From an uncultured Thermoleophilia bacterium (GTDB lineage Bacteria; Actinomycetota; Thermoleophilia; UBA2241): a DNA stretch of 64,000 bases. Positions within the stretch are counted from its first letter, which is position 1. Every line of letters starts with the position of its first letter. The position numbers and the translations under genes are program-made. The stretch covers positions 33,523 through 97,522 of the forward strand of contig CAWAUK010000044.1 in the NCBI GenBank assembly GCA_963784975.1. The letters are read 5' to 3'. This document shows positions 1 through 63,065 of the stretch, piece by piece. The notes beneath the pieces are model-generated. The model was not told the DNA's origin. It made no database searches and saw only the letters and a program-made list of their open reading frames with translations.

Positions 1-353
1 ACCGCCGCGACCGCAGGCGCGGCGGCGGTCCACAAGAAGGCGAAGCCCGTCTCCAGGTCCTCGGCCCGCGCCGCATCGGCCACATCCCGATCCGGCTCGA
101 GCGCGCCCTCGCCCTTCGCGAGCACCTCCGGGTCGAACGGCCCGGCGACGCGCGCCGCGGAGGAGCGGGCGACGCCGGGCGGCCGGTCCGGGTCGGCGCC
201 GGTCACGGACCCGCGGAACAGCACCAGCAGCAGGACCGTGAACGCTCCGTTGGCGAGCGCGAACCAGCTCCAGCTCCACCCCACGATCGCGAGCACGATC
301 GCGATGACCCCCACCACACCGCAGCCGATCGCCAGCGGCACCAGACGCTTCAT
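1..353 (-). CDS. hypothetical membrane protein (partial, runs off window start)
   Basis: Manual translation from ATG 353 (GGAGG RBS upstream): MKRLVPLAIGCGVVGVIAIVLAIVGWSWSWFALANGAFTVLLLVLF..., two hydrophobic segments; open to position 1. Confidence 0.6.
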   Translation of the reverse strand, partial: MKRLVPLAIGCGVVGVIAIVLAIVGWSWSWFALANGAFTVLLLVLFRGSVTGADPDRPPGVARSSAARVAGPFDPEVLAKGEGALEPDRDVADAARAEDLETGFAFLWTAAAPAVAA

Positions 354-368
354 GACGCCTCCCGTCCT

Positions 369-1940
369 TCAGTCGTAGTGCTGGAAGTCCGGCCACATCT
401 CCGCCCACGGACGCAGCGGCTGGCGGCACAGCCAGATCGACTGCCCCTGCTCCTCGTTGTCCACGCCCGCCGCATTGCCGATCCTCGCGACGCGATCGAC
501 CTGTCCGAAGTGCTGCTCGAGCCAGCGGGGATCCTCGCCCATGCCGACGGCGATGACCGTCGTGGCCTGTGCCGGCGGCGCGCCCCAGAGGTAGAAGTTG
601 TTCTGGCCGGAGTAGACCGGCGGCAGGCCGAAAGCCGGCCCGTAACGCTGGAGCGCGCCGGCCTCTCCGTAGTTGCCGGTGACGATCGCTGTTCTGGCCT
701 GCTCCGCCGGCGAGAGCGACCGGTACACGCCGGCGACCGTCTTCGTCAGGTCCGGCCAGCCGATCTCCTCGCCCAGGTTGTAGTTGATCTTCTGCAGCGG
801 GACGGTGTGCAGCCAGTGCGCCGGGAGGACCGGCAGCGATAACGGGACCAGGAGCACGGCGAACGCGACCATCCAGTGTATGCGGCGCGCGGCGAGCGCC
901 AGAGGAGGCGCCGCGCCGGTGGCCTCTCGGTGAAGAACCGGCGCGACCCATCGACCACGCCGGCCGTCGACCACAGAGCCGGCGCCGAACAGCACCAGGT
1001 ACAGCGGCCCGAGATAGTAGGGCCGGTCCCCCATGGCCGCCATGAGCAGGACGAAGAGCAGCAGGTAGGCAATGGCGAACGCCCGATAGTCGCGCAGCCG
1101 ACGATCCCGCAGCAGCGCCCACAGCCCCGCGAGCCAGACCGGGGCTGCCCAGAGCCCCGGCAGGACGAACTGCAGGATGACGAACGTGACGCTGTAGCCG
1201 GCCCCGGAGTGCTTCTCCCGGAGCGCCCCGCTCATCGCCAGCGTGGGCCAGCCGTGGTCCGCCTGCCAGAGCAGGTTGGGCACCCACAGCAGGATGGCGA
1301 TCCCGGCTCCGATCCAGAGATACGGGCTGCGGAGCACCTTCCACTGCCGGTTCACGACGAACCCCACCAGCAGCGCGATCACGAGAAACAGGATCGTGTG
1401 CTTCGCATACAGCGAGACCCCGACGAGGAAGCCGGCGAGCAGCCACAGGCGCTGGTCACCGCTGCGCAGGATGCGCAGCACGACGAGCATGACAAGTGCC
1501 CAGCCGACGAGGTCGTAGACGGTCGGCCCCGCCAGGTGCGCCAGGATCAGGAACGGGGAGACGGCGAGGAGAAGCGCGGCGAGAGTCTGGGCGAAGCGGC
1601 GGCCGCCCAGCTCGCGGGCCGTGAGGCCCGCGAGCACCACGGCCGCCGCGAACGCCAGGGCGGGGAAGAGCCGAAGGCCGGAGAGCGAGTCGCCGAAGAG
1701 GCGTCGCGCGAGCCAAACCAGCGCGACGCTCAGCGGCGGCTGGTCGACGTACCCCCAGGCCAAGTGCTTGGACGCGGCCACGAAGTACAGCTCGTCCCGG
1801 TGGTAGCCGTAGCGCCCGGCGAGCAGCATGAGGAGGACGAAGGCGCCGGCGGCGATGCCGGCCACTGGCAGCCACGCGACCGGCGCGAGCTCACGTGGCC
1901 AGCCGGAATCCGGGCGCTCACCTTTCAGACTCGTCGTCAT
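369..1940 (-). CDS. GT-C fold membrane glycosyltransferase (family 39/83, PMT/ArnT-like)
   Basis: RYGYHRDELYF and LAWGYVDQPPL motifs, many TM helices; probable pair of compensating indels around 880-970. Confidence 0.8.
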   Translation of the reverse strand: MTTSLKGERPDSGWPRELAPVAWLPVAGIAAGAFVLLMLLAGRYGYHRDELYFVAASKHLAWGYVDQPPLSVALVWLARRLFGDSLSGLRLFPALAFAAAVVLAGLTARELGGRRFAQTLAALLLAVSPFLILAHLAGPTVYDLVGWALVMLVVLRILRSGDQRLWLLAGFLVGVSLYAKHTILFLVIALLVGFVVNRQWKVLRSPYLWIGAGIAILLWVPNLLWQADHGWPTLAMSGALREKHSGAGYSVTFVILQFVLPGLWAAPVWLAGLWALLRDRRLRDYRAFAIAYLLLFVLLMAAMGDRPYYLGPLYLVLFGAGSVVDGRRGRWVAPVLHREATGAAPPLALAARRIHWMVAFAVLLVPLSLPVLPAHWLHTVPLQKINYNLGEEIGWPDLTKTVAGVYRSLSPAEQARTAIVTGNYGEAGALQRYGPAFGLPPVYSGQNNFYLWGAPPAQATTVIAVGMGEDPRWLEQHFGQVDRVARIGNAAGVDNEEQGQSIWLCRQPLRPWAEMWPDFQHYD

Positions 1941-1999
1941 GAGCGAATCGTACTCGCGCCGCCGAGCGCGCGACAGAGGTCTTCGCCCCGATCGGGACG

Positions 2000-2024
2000 G
2001 TTTCGCCCCTGAGAGTGAGGGAAC
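2000..2024 (+). promoter_or_regulatory. candidate SigF/SigB-type promoter for cupin gene
   Basis: GTTT-N15-GGGAAC, resembles the actinobacterial SigF consensus GTTT-N15-17-GGGTA. Confidence 0.4.
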
Positions 2025-2065
2025 GGGCCAGTATGGGCATCCGGCTCGTCACAACGAGGTGAACG

Positions 2066-2446
2066 ATGGACAAGATACGCGCGACGTCGCGCTCCCTGAG
2101 TGAAGCCGACGAGCAGGTAGACAGGGGACCGGTCCACATCGACGCCATCCGGCTCGGCGACTTCAAGGTGAAGCGGCAGACCTACCCGCCGGGCTGGCGG
2201 TTCTCGAAGGACATGGGCCAGGCGCAGTGCTACGACACCCATGTCGGCTATGCCATCTCGGGGCACGTGCACGTCCAGTTCGGGAACGGGCGGGAGCTCG
2301 ACGTCCGGGGCGGCGATGTCTTCGTCATCCCCCCGGGCCACGACGCCTGGACGGTCGGCGACGAAGCCATGGTGATGGTGCAGTTCGACGAGGGCGCGTC
2401 CGCGCTCGAGCGGTTCGGCGTGGAAGCGCCGGCCAAGGCGGCCTGA
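2066..2446 (+). CDS. cupin domain protein
   Basis: PPGWRFS...HVGYAISG...GDVFVIPPGHDAWTVGDE cupin motifs; GAGG RBS. Confidence 0.8.
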   Translation: MDKIRATSRSLSEADEQVDRGPVHIDAIRLGDFKVKRQTYPPGWRFSKDMGQAQCYDTHVGYAISGHVHVQFGNGRELDVRGGDVFVIPPGHDAWTVGDEAMVMVQFDEGASALERFGVEAPAKAA

Positions 2447-2461
2447 ACGCCGCGTCGCGAA

Positions 2462-2500
2462 CGGCGGACCGGAGCCCCGCGTCAGGGCTCCGGTCCGCCG
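2462..2500. terminator. 16-bp perfect hairpin between convergent genes
   Basis: CGGCGGACCGGAGCCC (2462-2477) / GGGCTCCGGTCCGCCG (2485-2500). Confidence 0.6.
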
Positions 2501-2572
2501 GCGCGAAGATGAGAAGACGGAGCCACGACTCCATCCGTCGCCGGGCAGGCAAGGGCCGGAACGGCCGGCCGC

Positions 2573-3524
2573 TCAAGTGGAAGGCGTGTCCGCGGCGGAC
2601 GACGCCCTGCCGGCGCCCCCGGAGAGCGCCTCGACCTCGATGAAGATGCGGCTGACCTCGGGGAACGGCTCGCCGATCCGCTCCTCGATGCGGTGCACGG
2701 CGTCGTGGATCTCCTCGGCCGGCAGGCCGGGCGTGAACTTGACCTCGATGTTGAGGAGCACGTCGTCCGGGCCAAGGTGCATGGTGAGCACCACGCCGAG
2801 GCCCGTCACCGCGGGGTCCTCAAGCACGATGCGGCGGATGTCCGCGACCATCTCCGGATCCGCCGCTTCGCCCACCAGCAGGCTCCTGCTCTCGTAGGCG
2901 AGCCAGAGCGCCGCGACGATGAGGATGCAGCCGATGACGACCGACGCGAGGCCGTCGAAGACCGGCGCATGGAGCAGGTGGCTGATGGCGACGCCGACGA
3001 ACGCGACCGACAGGCCCAGCAGGGCGGCCGTGTCCTCGAAGAGCACGGTGAACAGGCTGGGATCCTTGCCGTGGTGGATCGCCGCGATCGTCGTGCGTCC
3101 CGCGCCTGGTCCCGCGGAACGTCCGCCAGGCGACGCTGAACGAGATGCTCTCGAAGAGGGCGGCCAGCGCAAGCACGACGTAGTTGATCGTCGGGTTCTC
3201 GAGGGGGACAGGGTGCCGGATGTGGATGATGCCCTCGTAGATGGACATGCCGCCGCCGATGCCGAAGATGCTGACGGCGACGATGAGGCTCCAGAAGTAG
3301 ACCTCCATGCCGTGGCCGAAGGGGTGCTGGTCGTCGGCCGGTCTGGCGCCGCGATTGAGGCCGTAATAGAGGAGGCCGCCGTTGCCGGTGTCGACGACGG
3401 AGTGGATGCCTTCGCTGATCATCGCCGAGCTGCCGGTCATGGCTCCGGCGACGAACTTGATGGCCGCGATCGCGATGTTGCCGATGATCGCGGCGACGAC
3501 CGCCTTCTTGGATTCCTGCGCCAT
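2573..3524 (-). CDS. cation diffusion facilitator (CDF) family transporter, frameshifted near 3100
   Basis: N-half SSAMISEGIHSVVDTGN...HPFGHG in ORF 2820-3524; C-half KDPSLFTVLFED...TMHLGPDDVLL...RIFIE in ORF 2573-3172. Confidence 0.85.
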
Positions 3525-3631
3525 GGACGGAGTCTACTGCACGCCGCGCGAGGGACCGGGTCTTCACCCGACTTCCAAACGGGTACGTAAAGAGTAAGAA
3601 TGGACTCGTGGCTCTTGAAGGGAGTACCACG

Positions 3632-3799
3632 ATGCCTGGCAGCAGCGAGTATGAGTGTGGCGAATGTCGCCACCGCTTCCGCGCACCTGAGGGTGTGCCT
3701 CGAGACACGCGTTCTCTCATGTGTCCCGCGTGCGGGAGCATCGACCTCAACCTCATGAACAGCGATCGGCCGGCTCCAGGCCGTCTGGACCGCCCGTGA
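3632..3799 (+). CDS. small zinc-ribbon protein (FmdB-like)
   Basis: MPGSSEYECGECRHRF...CPACGS, two CxxC pairs; GAAGGGAG RBS 7 nt upstream of ATG. Confidence 0.7.
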   Translation: MPGSSEYECGECRHRFRAPEGVPRDTRSLMCPACGSIDLNLMNSDRPAPGRLDRP

Positions 3800-3934
3800 G
3801 GCAGCGCCCGCCGAGCAGTGGCGGGCGCCGAGCGAACCGGCGTCCTCGTAGCGGCGCTCGACCCGGGCCGCCGGCCTCGCCCGACGAGGGCGAGGCGGCG
3901 GCGACTGCTTCATGCGGTCTGGTACCCTAGGCTC

Positions 3935-4670
3935 ATGCTGAGAGCCGTCACGTTCGACTTCTGGAGCACCCTGTTCGTGGACTCCCGCGGCGGCGAGCGA
4001 GAAGCGCTGCGCGCCACCGTCCTCGCGGACGCCCTGCGCGCCGCGGGCCTCAAGGCCTCCGCCCAGGCGCTGCGCGAGTCCTTGCGCGCCAGCTGGGACC
4101 ACTTCGACGCCGTGTGGCTGCACGAGCATCGCACGCCGCCGTGCGCGGAGCTCGTCGACGCCATCCTCGGTTCCCTGCACGTGCAGCTGCCGCCGCCGCT
4201 CCGTGGAGGCGCTCGTGGACCGCTTCGAGCGCCTCATCCTGGAGATACCTCCCGAGCCCATGCCGGGCGCCGTCTCCACGATGCCGCAACTCGCCAAGCG
4301 CTACCGGCTCGCCATCATCTGCGACACCGGGTACTCGCCCGGAGCGGTGCTGCGCGAGCTGCTCGACCAGCACGACCTGCTCGGATACTTCGAGTACACG
4401 TACTTCTCCGACGAGCACGGGATGAGCAAGCCGGACACGCGCGTCTTCCTGCACGTCCTCGAGGAGTTGAGCGTGCGTCCCGCCGAGGCGGCCCACGTCG
4501 GCGACATCCAGCGCACGGACGTCGCCGGGGCGCAGGCCGCCGGCATGGCCGCCGTCCACTTCGTCGGCGCCAACAACGCCGACGTCCCTCACTCCACCGG
4601 GGACGTCATCGTCAGTCACTTCGAAGAACTGCCGCAGGCGCTCGGCAGCCTCAGCTGTGCCGGCTGCTGA
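3935..4670 (+). CDS. HAD family hydrolase, frameshifted near 4200
   Basis: MLRAVTFDFWSTL motif I in one frame; SKPD and HVGDIQRTDVAGA motifs in ORF 4203-4670. Confidence 0.8.
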
Positions 4671-21578: not shown

Positions 21579-25838
<4,260 letters not shown>

Positions 25839-25846
<8 letters not shown>

Positions 25847-27929
25847 CGAACACCTCCACACGGTTCTTGCCGAGCCGCTTGGCGAGATAGAGCGCCTTGT
25901 CGGCATTGCGCACCAGCTCGCCGGGACCGCCGGCCGCGCCAGGGAAGCAGGCGACGCCGATGCTCACCGTGATCCTGGTGTCGTCGTCCACGCCGGGCAG
26001 CGACGCTCCGGCCACCGAGACCCGGATGCGCTCGCTCACGCTCACGGCGCCCTCTTCGTTGGGCGGCGGGGCGCCGGGCAGCGAGGAGAGTTCGCGCGCC
26101 AGGCGGGTCCCGACCACCTGGGCGCCGTCGCGGGTGGTGTTGGGCAGCACGATGGTGAACTCCTCGCCGCCGTAGCGCGCGGCGATGTCGATGCCGGCAC
26201 GCAGGTTGGAGCCGAGGATGCGGCCGACCTCCGTGAGCACGAGGTCCCCGGCGGGATGGCCGAAGCGGTCGTTGAAGTGCTTGAAGTCGTCGATGTCGAT
26301 CATGAGCATGGAGAGCGGCAGCCCGTAGCGCTGCGCCCTTGCGATCTCCTGGTTCAGCCGCTCGTAGAAGTAGCGATGGTTGTACAGCCCCGTGAGCCCG
26401 TCGGTGATCGCCTGCCGCTCGATCGTGCGGTACAGCGCCGCGTTGGCCAGCGCCGCAGCGGCCTGGCTGGCGAGGATCTGCAGCAGCTCGACCTCGTCGT
26501 CGCCGGTCGCGAGCCCGGCGCCCCCGCGGATGTCGAGCAGGCCCTCCGCGGCGTCGCCCGAGACGAACGGCACGACCAGCCGTGAGCCGGCAGCGTCCTC
26601 AGCGATCGCCGGGCCGAGCGCGGCGACGGCCCGGCGGTGGAGGTCGTCGAGCTCCACCACCGCCGGCTCCTCGCCGGACCCGGCCGCGACGGGACCGGGT
26701 TCGAAGGGCACGAATGCCTCGCCGCGACGCAGCAGCAGCGTCACGGCGTCGCCGTGGACGTCGAACAGGTCGGCGACCTCGCGCCTCACCTCTCCGAGCA
26801 CGGCGCCGGCGTCGAGCGACGAGACCAGGACGCGGCTCGTCTCGAGCAGCGCCACGAGCCGCCGGTTCTGGCGCTCGCCGCGCCGGTACAGCCACGCGTG
26901 GCGGATGGCCGTCGCGGCCTGTTCCCCCAGCGCCCGCGCGAGCTCGATCTCAGCGGAGCTGAAGACCCGCTCGCGCGCCGTCTCGATGAGCACGAGGAGC
27001 CCCAGGGGCTCGCCCTCGACGACGAGCGGGACGTTGAGGCACGCCTTCTCGCCCCACTGCTCCATGGACTCGCGCACGTCCGGCGGGAGCGTCTCGTCCG
27101 AGAGCGTCTCCTGCACGACTGCGCCGCGGCGCAGGATCTCCCGGTCGGCGGGGTAGTCGTCGAGCGGGTAGACGCCGGCCTCGTCAAGGGCGGACGGCCG
27201 GCCGTCACGGCCGTAGAACGCGCGGAACACGATCGCGTCGCGCGCAGCGTCCAGCTCGTAGGCCACACACTCCACAGTCTCGAGGGCCTCGGCCGCGGTA
27301 CGGCAGATCTGCGCCAGCGAATCCTCCAGCGTGACCGTGGACGTGATCGCCCGCGCGGTGTCGACCATCGAGCCGAGGTAGCGGTTCTGCTCCTGCTGCA
27401 GGCGGAAGAGGCGCGCGTTACGGACGGCGACGGCCGCCGGGCCGGCGAGCAGGGTGACGAGCTCGCGGTCCTCGTCGGTGAAGCGCCGGCCCTCGCGCTT
27501 CTCGATCAGCGTGAGACAGCCCACGACGCCCTTGTCGCGGAAGTGCAGCGGGACGGCCAGGGTGGCGACCTCGCCCCACTCCAGCATCGCCGTGCGGTCC
27601 GCGGGATCGAGGTCCGCGTCGTCGATGCCCGTGAGCACGCAGGCGCCGCCCTCGATTATCGGCACGTAGCCGGGGCGATCGTCGAGGCTGACGCGAGTGC
27701 CGACCCAGGCGAGGTCCTCGTTCGTGAGCTCGCGCGCCCAGAGGGCGGCGGCGGTGAGCGTGCGGCTCTCCGGGTCGTACTCGTAGAGGTCGCACTCCCA
27801 GGCGTCGAGCGCTTCGGCGACGCGCCGGACGATGACGGTGGGCGCATCGTCGCGCACCAGCGCCTGCGTGATCTCCGCCCCGGCCTCGACGGCCAGCCTG
27901 AAGCGAGCGCTCTCGGTGGCCGGCTTCAT
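25839..27929 (-). CDS. diguanylate cyclase, 3xGAF-GGDEF
   Basis: DGLTGLYN, MIDIDDFKHFND, RYGGEEF; ATG overlaps the peptidase stop (ATGA). Confidence 0.9.
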
Positions 27930-29317
27930 CGCACGGCCCGAGGCTCGGCGGGGCGCGGGCGGGCAAGGCGGTAGCGATCGCGCGTGGCCACGAGCGCACA
28001 GAGCAGGGACGCGACCTGGCACTGGACGAGAGAGCGGATGGGCGTCGCCTCGATGCCGCCCGCGGCCGCGAGGCGCTCGGCACGCGTGCGCACCTCCGCG
28101 ACGGCCTCGTCGTGCAGCGTGCGCAGCACGTCGTCCTGCTGCGCCTCGGCGGCGATCATCCCGGCGAACTGGCCCACGCGGGCCAGCGTGTCGAGCTCAC
28201 GCAGGTACACCTGGTCGAAGAGCTGGGCCACCGTCGCCTCCTGCGCGAACTCGGGCTCGGTCTCGGCCTGTACGCGCGCGGCGCGGATGTCGTCCTTGAT
28301 CTCGCCGAGGTGGGCGTGCACGGTGCGCTGCCACGGCGTCTCGGCGGTGAGACGGGAGGCGGCCTTCACGTAGCGCTCGTGCAGCCATAGCGCCAGCTGC
28401 TCCTGCACCTCGAGGCCGCGCAGCTTGGCCTCGCGGCGGGAGAGCCCGGCTGGGCTCCGGTCGGCGATGCGTGGGCTCGTGAAGTACGGCACCTCGCTGA
28501 CCAGCGTGAAGCAGTCCCACATGGCCTCGGCGTAGTCGTCGCTCGAGGTGCCGAAGGTGAGGACCACCGCAGGGTCGGCCCCATAAGCTTCGTAGAACTC
28601 GTAGTCCTCGGCGAGGCCGAACCCGCGGAAGATCCCGGGCGCCAGCTGGCGCAGATACGGCATCTCGGGCTCGCCGCAGTCGGGCGGCAGCCCGGCCGCC
28701 GCCATGACGAAGGCGAGCTCGTCCTGAAGCTGGGCGTCCTCGGCCGACAGGTAGTAGTACGCGCCGCCGAAGGTGGAGTTGTGCAGCGGCATGTAGAAGT
28801 CGAGCGGGCGGCGGCCGATGACCTCCATCACGGCCGCCGCCTCCGGCAGCGGCCTGGTGAACGCGTAGCGCTTGTAGCTCACCGGGAACGTCCACTCGAA
28901 CTGGTCGTGCGGCGGCGGCCGGTACACACGCAGCAGGAAGCCGGTGAGGTCGTAGGGCTCGTCGAACCAAGGCTCGTTGAGCAGCGTCGCGTCAGGGTCG
29001 CCGGCCTTGATCACGGAGAAGTTGAAGCCGAGCTCGGTGGCCAGGCCGTCCGCGAGCAGAGGCAGCAGGTACTCGAGCGCGAGCGTGCCGACGGGCTCTT
29101 CCGGGTGCGGCAGGCCGACGAGGAGCGCCTGCAGCGGGCCGCCGGGGATCTCGAGGCAGCGCAGCGGGTGGCCGGCCCGCGACGCGCCCGGCGACCACAC
29201 CTCGATCTCGGGATGCGCGGCGGCCAGGCCGTCGGTGGACCGCTCGAGCTCGCCCAAGGTCAGGTAGCGCTCGAGGGCCGGGACCCCTGCCACGATCTCG
29301 TCGAAACACGGGAACAC
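27926..29317 (-). CDS. M14 family zinc carboxypeptidase
   Basis: GASRAGHPL, HPEE (HxxE), LHNS, SEVPYF; no signal peptide. Confidence 0.8.
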   Translation of the reverse strand: MFPCFDEIVAGVPALERYLTLGELERSTDGLAAAHPEIEVWSPGASRAGHPLRCLEIPGGPLQALLVGLPHPEEPVGTLALEYLLPLLADGLATELGFNFSVIKAGDPDATLLNEPWFDEPYDLTGFLLRVYRPPPHDQFEWTFPVSYKRYAFTRPLPEAAAVMEVIGRRPLDFYMPLHNSTFGGAYYYLSAEDAQLQDELAFVMAAAGLPPDCGEPEMPYLRQLAPGIFRGFGLAEDYEFYEAYGADPAVVLTFGTSSDDYAEAMWDCFTLVSEVPYFTSPRIADRSPAGLSRREAKLRGLEVQEQLALWLHERYVKAASRLTAETPWQRTVHAHLGEIKDDIRAARVQAETEPEFAQEATVAQLFDQVYLRELDTLARVGQFAGMIAAEAQQDDVLRTLHDEAVAEVRTRAERLAAAGGIEATPIRSLVQCQVASLLCALVATRDRYRLARPRPAEPRAVR

Positions 29318-29392
29318 GCTGACCCCCCAGTCGACGCCGCCTCATCGTGTCGCCGTAGCTTACCAGACGGTCGCCGCCGGGCTGCGGAATGC

Positions 29393-29419
29393 TCAAGGTC
29401 TCTGCGCGGCTGCCGATAC
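29393..29419 (+). promoter_or_regulatory. sigma28/FliA/WhiG-type promoter
   Basis: TCAA-N15-GCCGATAC against the consensus TAAA-N15-GCCGATAA. Confidence 0.7.
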
Positions 29420-29424
29420 AGAGA

Positions 29425-29480
29425 GTGGTACCCCCTTCAGAGGGCCGGACCGGCGCCGTTCGCCGGCCCGGCCCTTTTGT
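29425..29480 (+). ncRNA. candidate ~55-nt small RNA with C-rich seed
   Basis: Bounded by the sigma28-type promoter and an intrinsic terminator; no ORF; seed GUGGUACCCCCUUCA is complementary to the RBS at 3616-3630. Confidence 0.55.
29441..29478 (+). terminator. intrinsic terminator
   Basis: AGGGCCGG-A-CCGGCG / loop CCGTT / CGCCGG-C-CCGGCCCT followed by TTT. Confidence 0.7.
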
Positions 29481-29603
29481 CTGCCCGGACGCTGTCTCTT
29501 CCGTCAGCTCCCGCCGGCGATCCCGACCGCGAACCCGCCCTGCGGACTCTGGCCCCCCACGTCGGGCATGTGCTACGGTTGGCGTAAGCCTCGGGAGGGC
29601 GCC

Positions 29604-29801
29604 GTGATCTACTGCGTGGTACCTCCGGAGCTCGGCGAAGACGCATTCCGGCGCCTCGTGGAGCACTACCGGGACAACCCGAACGTCAAGGTCATCATGG
29701 ACCGCCGCCACGGCGAGCGCCGCACCGATCGCTCCGGCGGCGGCGAGCGCCAGACCCGCGACCGGCGGCGGCGGCGCGCTCCGGGCTCGTTCGACATCTG
29801 A
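29604..29801 (+). CDS. small hypothetical protein with DRR/ERR motifs
   Basis: GGGAGG RBS and GTG start; MIYCVVPPELG...VIMDRRHGERRTDR...; extended -10 TGCTACGGT upstream. Confidence 0.7.
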   Translation: MIYCVVPPELGEDAFRRLVEHYRDNPNVKVIMDRRHGERRTDRSGGGERQTRDRRRRRAPGSFDI

Positions 29802-62560: not shown

Positions 62561-63002
62561 GGTCGCCCTCCCTCACAGCGCGACAGGAGGGGCAGATGCC
62601 GTACACCTCGAGGTGATGGCCGTAGATGGTGAACCCGGTGGCCTCCGCGAGCTTCGCCTCGAGCTCGGCGACGTCGCCGTCGCCGTCGAAGCGCACGACC
62701 CGCCGGCAGACGCCACAGATGAGCGGGTGACTGTGGCCGATGGGCGGCGCGATGAAGCGCATCTCGCCGCGCCCATCCTGCACGCGCGCGAGCAGGCCGA
62801 GGTCGCTGAGGAGCTGGACCGTGCGGTACACCGTGGCTTGGCCCACGCCTTCGATGCGCAGGGCGTCGGCCGCCTCGGTGATGGCGGCGGCGCGGTCGGC
62901 GCCGGCGAAGAAGTCCCAGATCTGCCGGCGCTGCCGCGTGAACGGGATGCCCTTCTGACGGAAGACGGCCTCGATCTCATGCGCCGGCTGCGGGTCGGTC
63001 AA
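62550..63002 (-). CDS. Fur-family transcriptional regulator
   Basis: TRQRRQI, GQATVYRT, HSHPLICGVC, HHLEVYGICPSC. Confidence 0.9.
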   Translation of the reverse strand: MTDPQPAHEIEAVFRQKGIPFTRQRRQIWDFFAGADRAAAITEAADALRIEGVGQATVYRTVQLLSDLGLLARVQDGRGEMRFIAPPIGHSHPLICGVCRRVVRFDGDGDVAELEAKLAEATGFTIYGHHLEVYGICPSCRAVREGDHGE

Positions 63003-63024
63003 CTCGTGTACTCCCCAAGCTCCA

Positions 63025-63065
63025 GTTGAGAACTGTTCTCAACAGTGTTGAGAAAACCTATCAAC
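63025..63065. promoter_or_regulatory. tandem Fur-family operator boxes
   Basis: Perfect 9-1-9 palindrome GTTGAGAAC-T-GTTCTCAAC (63025-63043) plus imperfect copy GTTGAGAAAACCTATCAAC (63047-63065). Confidence 0.8.

Follow-up and report, generated by a model that had tools for sequence, protein, structure and literature searches.

A probable small RNA gene with a WhiG-type promoter, conserved in an uncultured family of Thermoleophilia

WhiG is a relative of sigma28 in Actinomycetota and is controlled by cyclic di-GMP (c-di-GMP). Small RNAs (sRNAs) tied to factors of this kind have been described in several bacteria. In Escherichia coli the sigma28-dependent sRNAs UhpU, MotR, FliX and FlgO are reported to derive from untranslated regions and to serve flagellar synthesis (PMC10578931), and a FliA-dependent sRNA is reported in Campylobacter jejuni (PMC11187230). 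The sRNA scr1906 of Streptomyces coelicolor is reported to be whiG-dependent and to lack a WhiG-type promoter, and was proposed to be affected indirectly (PMC2602773). Published WhiG regulons list only protein-coding genes because the underlying searches, as set out in the texts of two papers, demanded a start codon within 200 bp and took in protein-coding targets only (PMC8325347, PMC12871210). The word 'sRNA' has no occurrence in the texts of these two papers, whose figures or supplements may contain a comparable promoter. Here we describe an element at positions 29392-29480 of a 64,000-nucleotide (nt) stretch of contig CAWAUK010000044.1, referred to below as the window, from an uncultured Thermoleophilia bacterium. 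The element is very probably a real and previously undescribed sRNA gene with a predicted sigma28/WhiG-type promoter, conserved in one uncultured Thermoleophilia family. The host assembly in which the window lies (GCA_963784975.1, hereafter G000) measures 3.6 Mb and is 83% complete, and the hosts are uncultured and known as metagenome-assembled genomes (MAGs) only. Our statements on the transcript, on promoter use and on targets derive from sequence comparison and predicted folds.

The element opens with a -35 hexamer of the sigma28/WhiG type, CTCAAG (29392..29397, + strand), which is also seen in homologous copies. Its TCAA (29393-29396) is separated by a 15-nt spacer from the -10 element GCCGATAC (29412..29419, +). 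Further downstream GTGGTACCCCCTTCA occupies 29425-29439, and within this 15-mer alignments delimit a single-stranded 5′ segment, GGUACCCCCUUCA (29427..29439, +), which we call the seed. A GC-rich terminator hairpin with a U-tract follows (29442..29478, +), its stem covering 29442-29474 and its TTTT 29475-29478. The predicted small RNA, about 50-55 nt long, would run from a deduced start at 29427 to 29480 (+), and a covariance model that is free of the promoter scores it at 76.5 bits. The element is intergenic, has its own promoter and its own terminator hairpin, and contains no genuine open reading frame (ORF), since those that overlap it are spurious. An earlier note on this DNA had described TCAA-N15-GCCGATAC, the 15-mer and the GC hairpin with TTTT, all of them correctly, and had proposed a self-contained short non-coding unit behind a sigma28/WhiG-type promoter. 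That proposal holds up well in relatives, where promoter, seed and covarying hairpin are kept in five genera.

The covariance model was built from 20 aligned copies of the RNA part only. It finds one full-length match, at 48-81 bits, in each of 45 of the 54 genomes of the host genus, and it matches 6 of the 13 genomes of a second genus at full length. A third genus, missed by the model, carries the same promoter and seed on a different, longer hairpin. Weaker matches within G000 (on contigs C49, C64 and C22) were rejected as plain terminators without a seed. BLAST with the intergenic region recovered 22 of 24 host-genus genomes and drew a blank in 16 genomes from the rest of the class, outside the family. 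A pattern combining promoter and seed, T[AC]AA-N15-16-GCCGAT-N5-14-TACCCCCTTC, is present in G000 and, beyond it, in 55 of 79 family members, spread over five genera. It occurs once per genome, except in G072, which has two occurrences on two contigs. Neither this pattern in 321 genomes from 11 other families of the class nor its reversed control gave a single match. Finally, a wider contig scan listed at least 120 matches, most of them attributable to chance; 16 among those listed carry the full promoter, and 15 of these 16 show the seed-plus-hairpin architecture, their record titles naming Thermoleophilia, Actinomycetota or Actinomycetes MAGs.

Among 58 distinct copies the -35 hexamer is CTCAAG in 34, CTAAAG in 23 and TTCAAG in one. 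The distance between T[AC]AA and GCCGAT is 15-16 nt in all 58, with the spacer sequence free to vary. Moreover, a G precedes CCGAT in every one of the 58 copies, and the pattern used for selection did not demand that G. The promoter pattern also lies upstream of 44 of the 46 loci that were found by the covariance model, which was built without it. One of the two exceptions is a -10 variant with one base changed (GTCGATAT) in one relative, and the other is a false locus in a genome whose true copy carries the promoter. The sRNA promoter matches the published WhiG consensus T(A/C)AA-N16-GCCGA(TAA) (PMC8325347, PMC12871210, PMC2602773), two of which give the consensus of WhiG2 as T(A/C)AA-N16-GCCGATAA (PMC8325347, PMC12871210). 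As a prediction from sequence, the assignment of the promoter to the sigma28/WhiG type is well founded.

The transcribed part of the element is conserved in a different manner at its two ends. The seed GUACCCCCUUCA is nearly invariant over the 58 distinct copies, as is GTACCCCCTTCA in five genera, and the seed core TACCCCCTTC (29429-29438) is unchanged in 55 of the 58. The conserved GGTACC starts 5-11 nt past the -10 octamer in these copies. Promoters of the sigma28 type usually start transcription about 5-11 nt past the -10 element, so the seed probably is the very 5′ end of the RNA. The seed is predicted to be unpaired: over the 58 copies its mean unpaired probability is 0.77 at the median, and 4 copies lie below 0.5. 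The 66-nt stretch has a predicted ΔG of -34.2 kcal/mol (z -3.3) and is more stable than each of 200 shuffles. Covariation of the hairpin is evident among 20 sequences, where 97.1% of cells are paired and both sides have changed in 6 of 12 pairs; no shuffle among 500 equals this, and slid registers are only 32-61% paired. In the genera designated g15 and g23 the hairpin sequence is wholly different, with promoter and seed unchanged. Such an exchange of the hairpin on a fixed promoter and seed is hard to explain without a function.

The sigma28-family gene on which the earlier note's proposal depends is present in the genome. It lies at G000:C27:5221-5898 and scores 278.6 bits with TIGR02479 against a cut-off of 189.6, which the same model exceeds in 42 of the 54 genomes of the host genus. 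The nearest Protein Data Bank (PDB) chains are two entries named 'RNA polymerase sigma factor' (6pfj and 6pfv, 286-288 bits), which we take to be the Streptomyces RsiG-WhiG complex, and FliA scores 177. The motif T[AC]AA-N14-16-GCCGATA occurs at 15 sites in G000, compared with 0-4 at five other spacings, one for the reversed motif and 0-3 for a scrambled -10. Most of these sites precede genes, among them genes for a response regulator (RR) with EAL, an HD-GYP-like protein, a PilB-like ATPase with MshEN, an RR-MshEN protein and an NlpC/P60-SLH protein. This make-up, with its c-di-GMP and type IV pilus genes, parallels that of the WhiG regulon of Rubrobacter radiotolerans, for which 12 start-site-verified promoters and a membership of type IV pilus genes and diguanylate cyclase and phosphodiesterase genes are reported (PMC8325347). 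The two regulons share the promoter consensus and the kinds of members, the Rubrobacter example coming from a sister class with a single-motif RsiG. A search of G000 for flagellin found none. The sRNA may depend on WhiG in vivo.

Two more WhiG-type promoter matches in G000 (C46:28080-28330, and the minus strand of C60 near 12660) precede strongly folding non-coding stretches and have no gene immediately behind them. On C46 there are two promoters 220 nt apart, and the downstream one precedes the RR-MshEN gene. Both matches may represent further WhiG-driven short transcripts or long leaders.

The locus can be set beside the described systems in several respects. Like the sRNAs of E. coli and C. 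jejuni, it would place a small RNA under a sigma28-family factor as a post-transcriptional layer, although here this is read from sequence alone. Unlike the E. coli sRNAs, it is a stand-alone intergenic gene in a genome where no flagellin was found, and the regulon consists of c-di-GMP and pilus genes. The E. coli and C. jejuni sRNAs have no sequence similarity to it, and Rfam offers no match. With scr1906 it would have in common that an actinobacterial sRNA is tied to whiG, but the present one has a consensus WhiG-type promoter. A further likeness concerns the pairing motif. In the 6C/B11-type sRNAs of Actinobacteria and the UCCC-motif sRNAs of Firmicutes, C-rich hairpin loops pair with G-rich ribosome-binding sites (RBSs) in high-GC or Hfq-independent settings, whereas the C-rich motif described here stands at the 5′ end.

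At the gathering score Rfam gives no match anywhere in the window, with 6C and riboswitches included in the search. The sRNA region matches no family, 6C included, at that score or at E≤10; the local hits are all sub-threshold and due to the hairpin, and the best of them has 18.9 bits where 50 are required. Since there is no Rfam match and sRNAs go unmentioned in the texts of the two WhiG-regulon papers, this is a new RNA family, as the earlier note had supposed when it recognised no described one; its kind, the sRNA with a sigma28-type promoter, is already known. With a conserved non-coding gene behind a WhiG-type consensus promoter, the c-di-GMP switch would gain a post-transcriptional layer. 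RNA genes are missed by regulon searches that rely on start codons. Moreover, an RNA this compact, with a 13-nt seed and a hairpin, could serve as a model for Hfq-independent pairing at G-rich RBSs.

The explanation that we favour, and hold as a whole to be probable, is that 29392-29480 would be an independent gene for an sRNA of about 50-55 nt, with a sigma28/WhiG-type promoter and an intrinsic terminator. The RNA would consist of the unpaired C-rich 5′ end GGUACCCCCUUCA, a stable hairpin and little else. Its 5′ end is predicted to pair with G-rich Shine-Dalgarno (SD) regions resembling GAAGGGGG, which would block ribosome binding. The set of repressed mRNAs would differ between species, with the mRNA of a zinc-ribbon gene as one candidate in G000 and its close relatives. 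Since the promoter type matches the WhiG regulon of c-di-GMP turnover and type IV pilus genes, the sRNA would give that regulon its post-transcriptional arm. We conclude that the seed is probably aimed at strong G-rich SDs as a class. It presumably resembles the anti-SD of 16S rRNA; the 16S rRNA gene of G000 is truncated at model position 1326, where its contig ends.

Target prediction on the scale of a whole genome covered G000. Good sites there, apart from that of the zinc-ribbon gene, precede unrelated genes, namely those for an MtmB-like protein, a cupredoxin, a C11 peptidase, SdhC, OTCase and an M28 peptidase. Of 89 family genomes, 50 have perfect 10-nt complements of the seed ahead of start codons, in differing and unrelated genes. 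Counted by hand, these number about 80 across the family, of which about a fifth represent the antisense of the sRNA gene itself; the reversed control gives about 33. Nine of the genes with such complements encode unrelated exported proteins; they were chosen for the look of a signal peptide, and this biased choice means that they give no evidence of an enrichment of exported proteins. The RBS of a Fur-like gene, which the earlier note had named as a weaker target (GGGGAGTACAC, 63006..63016, −; TTG start at 63002), finds no support, as its duplex of -16.4 kcal/mol is equalled by 347 of 4584 RBS regions.

Several points weigh against the explanation that we favour. The genomes behind counts such as 55 of 79 belong to one family and are not independent samples, so these counts overstate independence. 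The U-tract is poor or imperfect in many relatives, and a terminator and promoter scanner, which models only sigma70 promoters and perfect stems, made no call at the site. WhiG also occurs in 8 host-genus genomes without the sRNA; the phyletic distribution thus gives WhiG dependence no support, and a phyletic link between the two was ruled out. Among the translation initiation regions (TIRs) compared, we found no target conserved across the whole family. In five test genomes (G017, G001, G014, G095 and G078) the OTCase and SdhC TIRs keep the SD alone, just one of the five has a true MtmB ortholog, with complementarity not kept beyond the SD, and no cupredoxin orthologs were found. The TIRs of the WhiG-regulon genes, of whiG, of the Fur-like gene and of a gene for a protein of 65 amino acids (aa) downstream of the sRNA rank from 347 to 4567 of 4584, which is unremarkable. 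Likewise, the extended pairing with the zinc-ribbon mRNA is restricted to a subclade, and more distant members keep a generic SD only.

This zinc-ribbon gene (CDS 3632-3799, +; 55 aa), which has weak Pfam and NCBIfam zinc-ribbon matches below the cut-offs, was the principal target proposed in the earlier note. Its SD and spacer, TGAAGGGAGTACCAC (3616..3630, +), are indeed complementary to the 15-mer at 14 of 15 positions and lie two bases ahead of ATG 3632. Within the window, shuffles lead one to expect 0.07 sites with at most two mismatches to the 15-mer, and one is observed besides the element itself. Apart from the zinc-ribbon site, nothing in the 3.6-Mb assembly comes within one mismatch; two mismatches are found at 2 sites and three at 34. 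By our own estimate from base composition, about 0.3 sites with at most one mismatch are expected genome-wide, so the match at 14 of 15 positions is not in itself significant at genome scale. The duplex formed with the conserved 15-nt seed has an energy of -21.5 kcal/mol, a value that 16 of 4584 candidate RBS regions equal or better (top 0.35%, rank about 17th); with the 17-nt form of the seed specific to G000, three regions do as well or better (rank about 4th). In a duplex scan of all sites in G000 on both strands the site comes out at about 142nd, so energy alone does not single it out.

An RNA whose main purpose is to repress this single mRNA, through a duplex that covers the SD and spacer, is an explanation that we consider unlikely. 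In its favour are the sole site with at most one mismatch, the high rank among RBS regions, the presence of TGAAGGGAGTACC in 19 of 29 close zinc-ribbon orthologs, and the distribution within the host genus, where 43 of the 46 genomes with the RNA have the gene and it was found in none of the 8 without the RNA. However, the two loci are syntenic, 15-34 kb apart, and this co-occurrence may reflect a single event of loss; in g15, at least 8 of 12 genomes have the RNA and the zinc-ribbon gene was detected in 0 of 12. Only 20 of 42 host-genus orthologs carry GAAGGGAGTACC, and the others have a generic SD and a different spacer even though the seed is unchanged. The central C-A mismatch persists in all but one genome, and no compensatory changes were seen, in the relatives compared, where seed or target varies. 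In G000 the GU before the GG lengthens the pairing; relatives do not conserve it, and it may precede the transcription start, outside the predicted transcript. Moreover, the mRNA has a leader hairpin of its own (window 3590-3634, +), in which CGUGG pairs with CCACG and CUYCUU with the SD GGGAG at -7 to -17 kcal/mol. Nearly all of the 29 close orthologs share it, compensatory variants are present among them, and its CCACG just precedes the start codon. This hairpin explains the conserved spacer without any sRNA and must melt for pairing to occur, at a cost in opening energy. Set against the earlier note's proposal, the RBS ranks high without being unique, the pairing beyond a generic SD holds in G000 and its subclade but not in most host-genus orthologs, and conservation in relatives applies to the seed in five genera and to the complementarity in the subclade only. 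That the zinc-ribbon mRNA is a true target in this subclade is conceivable, if doubtful. As an observation in its own right, the leader hairpin resembles self-occlusion of the RBS.

Two further alternatives turn on the neighbouring 65-aa protein gene (29604..29801, +). In the three genera examined it follows the sRNA at a distance of 100-190 nt and on the same strand. The element might be a cis-acting leader or attenuator, in which a WhiG transcript stops at the hairpin and conditionally reads into the 65-aa and thioesterase genes, with the conserved 5′ stretch as a binding site for an antitermination factor. The constant position and strand of the element fit such an arrangement, and the weak U-tracts of many relatives would permit read-through. 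Against it, only about 15 nt precede the hairpin, the largely unpaired seed has no alternative pairing, and Rfam has no matching cis-element. In addition, a -10-like element (TGCTACGGT, 29570-29578, +) stands between the terminator and the gene; it is TGCTACCGT in most relatives and TAGATT in g15. Its conservation suggests that the gene is probably transcribed from a promoter of its own. This weakens the attenuator interpretation, which we regard, antitermination site included, as quite unlikely. Alternatively, the conserved 20 nt could be a binding site: at the DNA level an operator over the start site, or at the RNA level a means of titrating a protein, for instance the 65-aa protein. The near invariance of GGTACCCCCTTCAGAGGGCC, which exceeds the usual conservation of a seed, the short palindromic pieces GGTACC and CCCT..AGGG within it, and the very conserved basic small protein that always adjoins it could all be read in this way. 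Yet a promoter, an unpaired 5′ end and a covarying hairpin make up the standard anatomy of a base-pairing sRNA, and the 65-aa protein belongs to no recognised nucleic-acid-binding family, so that we think a binding site very improbable. The independent sRNA gene, pairing with SDs through its 5′ end, remains the explanation that we prefer.

The protein itself is 70-82% identical across the three genera and adjoins the sRNA in all of them. Its N-terminal half is invariant (IYCVVPPELGE...NPNV.VI.DRR) and its tail is Arg-rich. There are 472 protein clusters, every one named hypothetical, and searches of Pfam, NCBIfam and Atlas gave no lead.

Gene order around the RNA is the same in three genera, comprising a divergent GAF-GGDEF gene, the RNA, the 65-aa Arg-rich gene, a 4HBT thioesterase gene and a DUF1385 gene. 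The diguanylate cyclase gene (25839..28022, −), assigned to GAF-GGDEF by Pfam and traced by tblastn synteny in the three genera, is the divergent neighbour of the sRNA. The first gene of the divergent operon is a 463-aa ORF that could be assigned to no family (27926..29317, −), which was found in g1 and g23 and was not present at the g15 loci examined. On our own reading of the sequence a -10-like TAAGCT of this operon sits to the left of the sRNA promoter, which makes an antisense overlap unlikely. Cis-antisense control of the divergent GGDEF operon was ruled out on this ground and because pairing with its TIR is weak.

The adjacent diguanylate cyclase gene and a regulon rich in c-di-GMP proteins lead us to infer a link between the sRNA and c-di-GMP through RsiG. 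Single-motif RsiG proteins have been reported in Thermoleophilia. The search for RsiG in the 83%-complete G000 consisted of motif scans; strict and relaxed six-frame scans for E(X)3S(X)2R(X)3Q(X)3D returned no plausible small helical ORF. A more ambitious proposal makes the sRNA the riboregulatory output of a c-di-GMP/RsiG/WhiG switch, and taken jointly its steps seem to us improbable. A fall in c-di-GMP would release WhiG, and an anti-SD mimic would be made. Messenger RNAs with the extra-strong SD GAAGGGGGUAC, several of them for exported proteins, would then be silenced, and the Arg-rich 65-aa protein may act as a dedicated partner of the sRNA in a phylum without Hfq. If true, this would be the first directly WhiG-dependent sRNA in Actinomycetota.

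Some observations concern individual genes that came up in the comparison of targets. In two relatives, the leaders of genes for exported proteins with TasA/camelysin-like N-termini, L167 (G011:C12) and L168 (G024:C4), show 17 nt of complementarity to the sRNA (CCCTCTGAAGGGGGTAC). The complementarity extends into the base of the sRNA hairpin, and a short hairpin that precedes the leaders resembles the antisense strand of the sRNA. Directly upstream of the RBS of the Fur-like gene lies a long inverted repeat, ttctcaacactgttgagaacagttctcaac (window 63017-63055, −), which looks like a candidate autoregulatory operator of the Fur type. The MtmB-like gene, whose RBS is among the best matches to the seed, encodes a putative monomethylamine methyltransferase (G000:C72:24857-26230, of which L289 is 24857-25477) and scores 241 bits with Pfam MtmB over its first 207 aa. 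It has an in-frame TAG at codon 209, after which the frame stays open to about 458 aa in total, the arrangement expected for a pyrrolysine codon, here apparently in a Thermoleophilia assembly.

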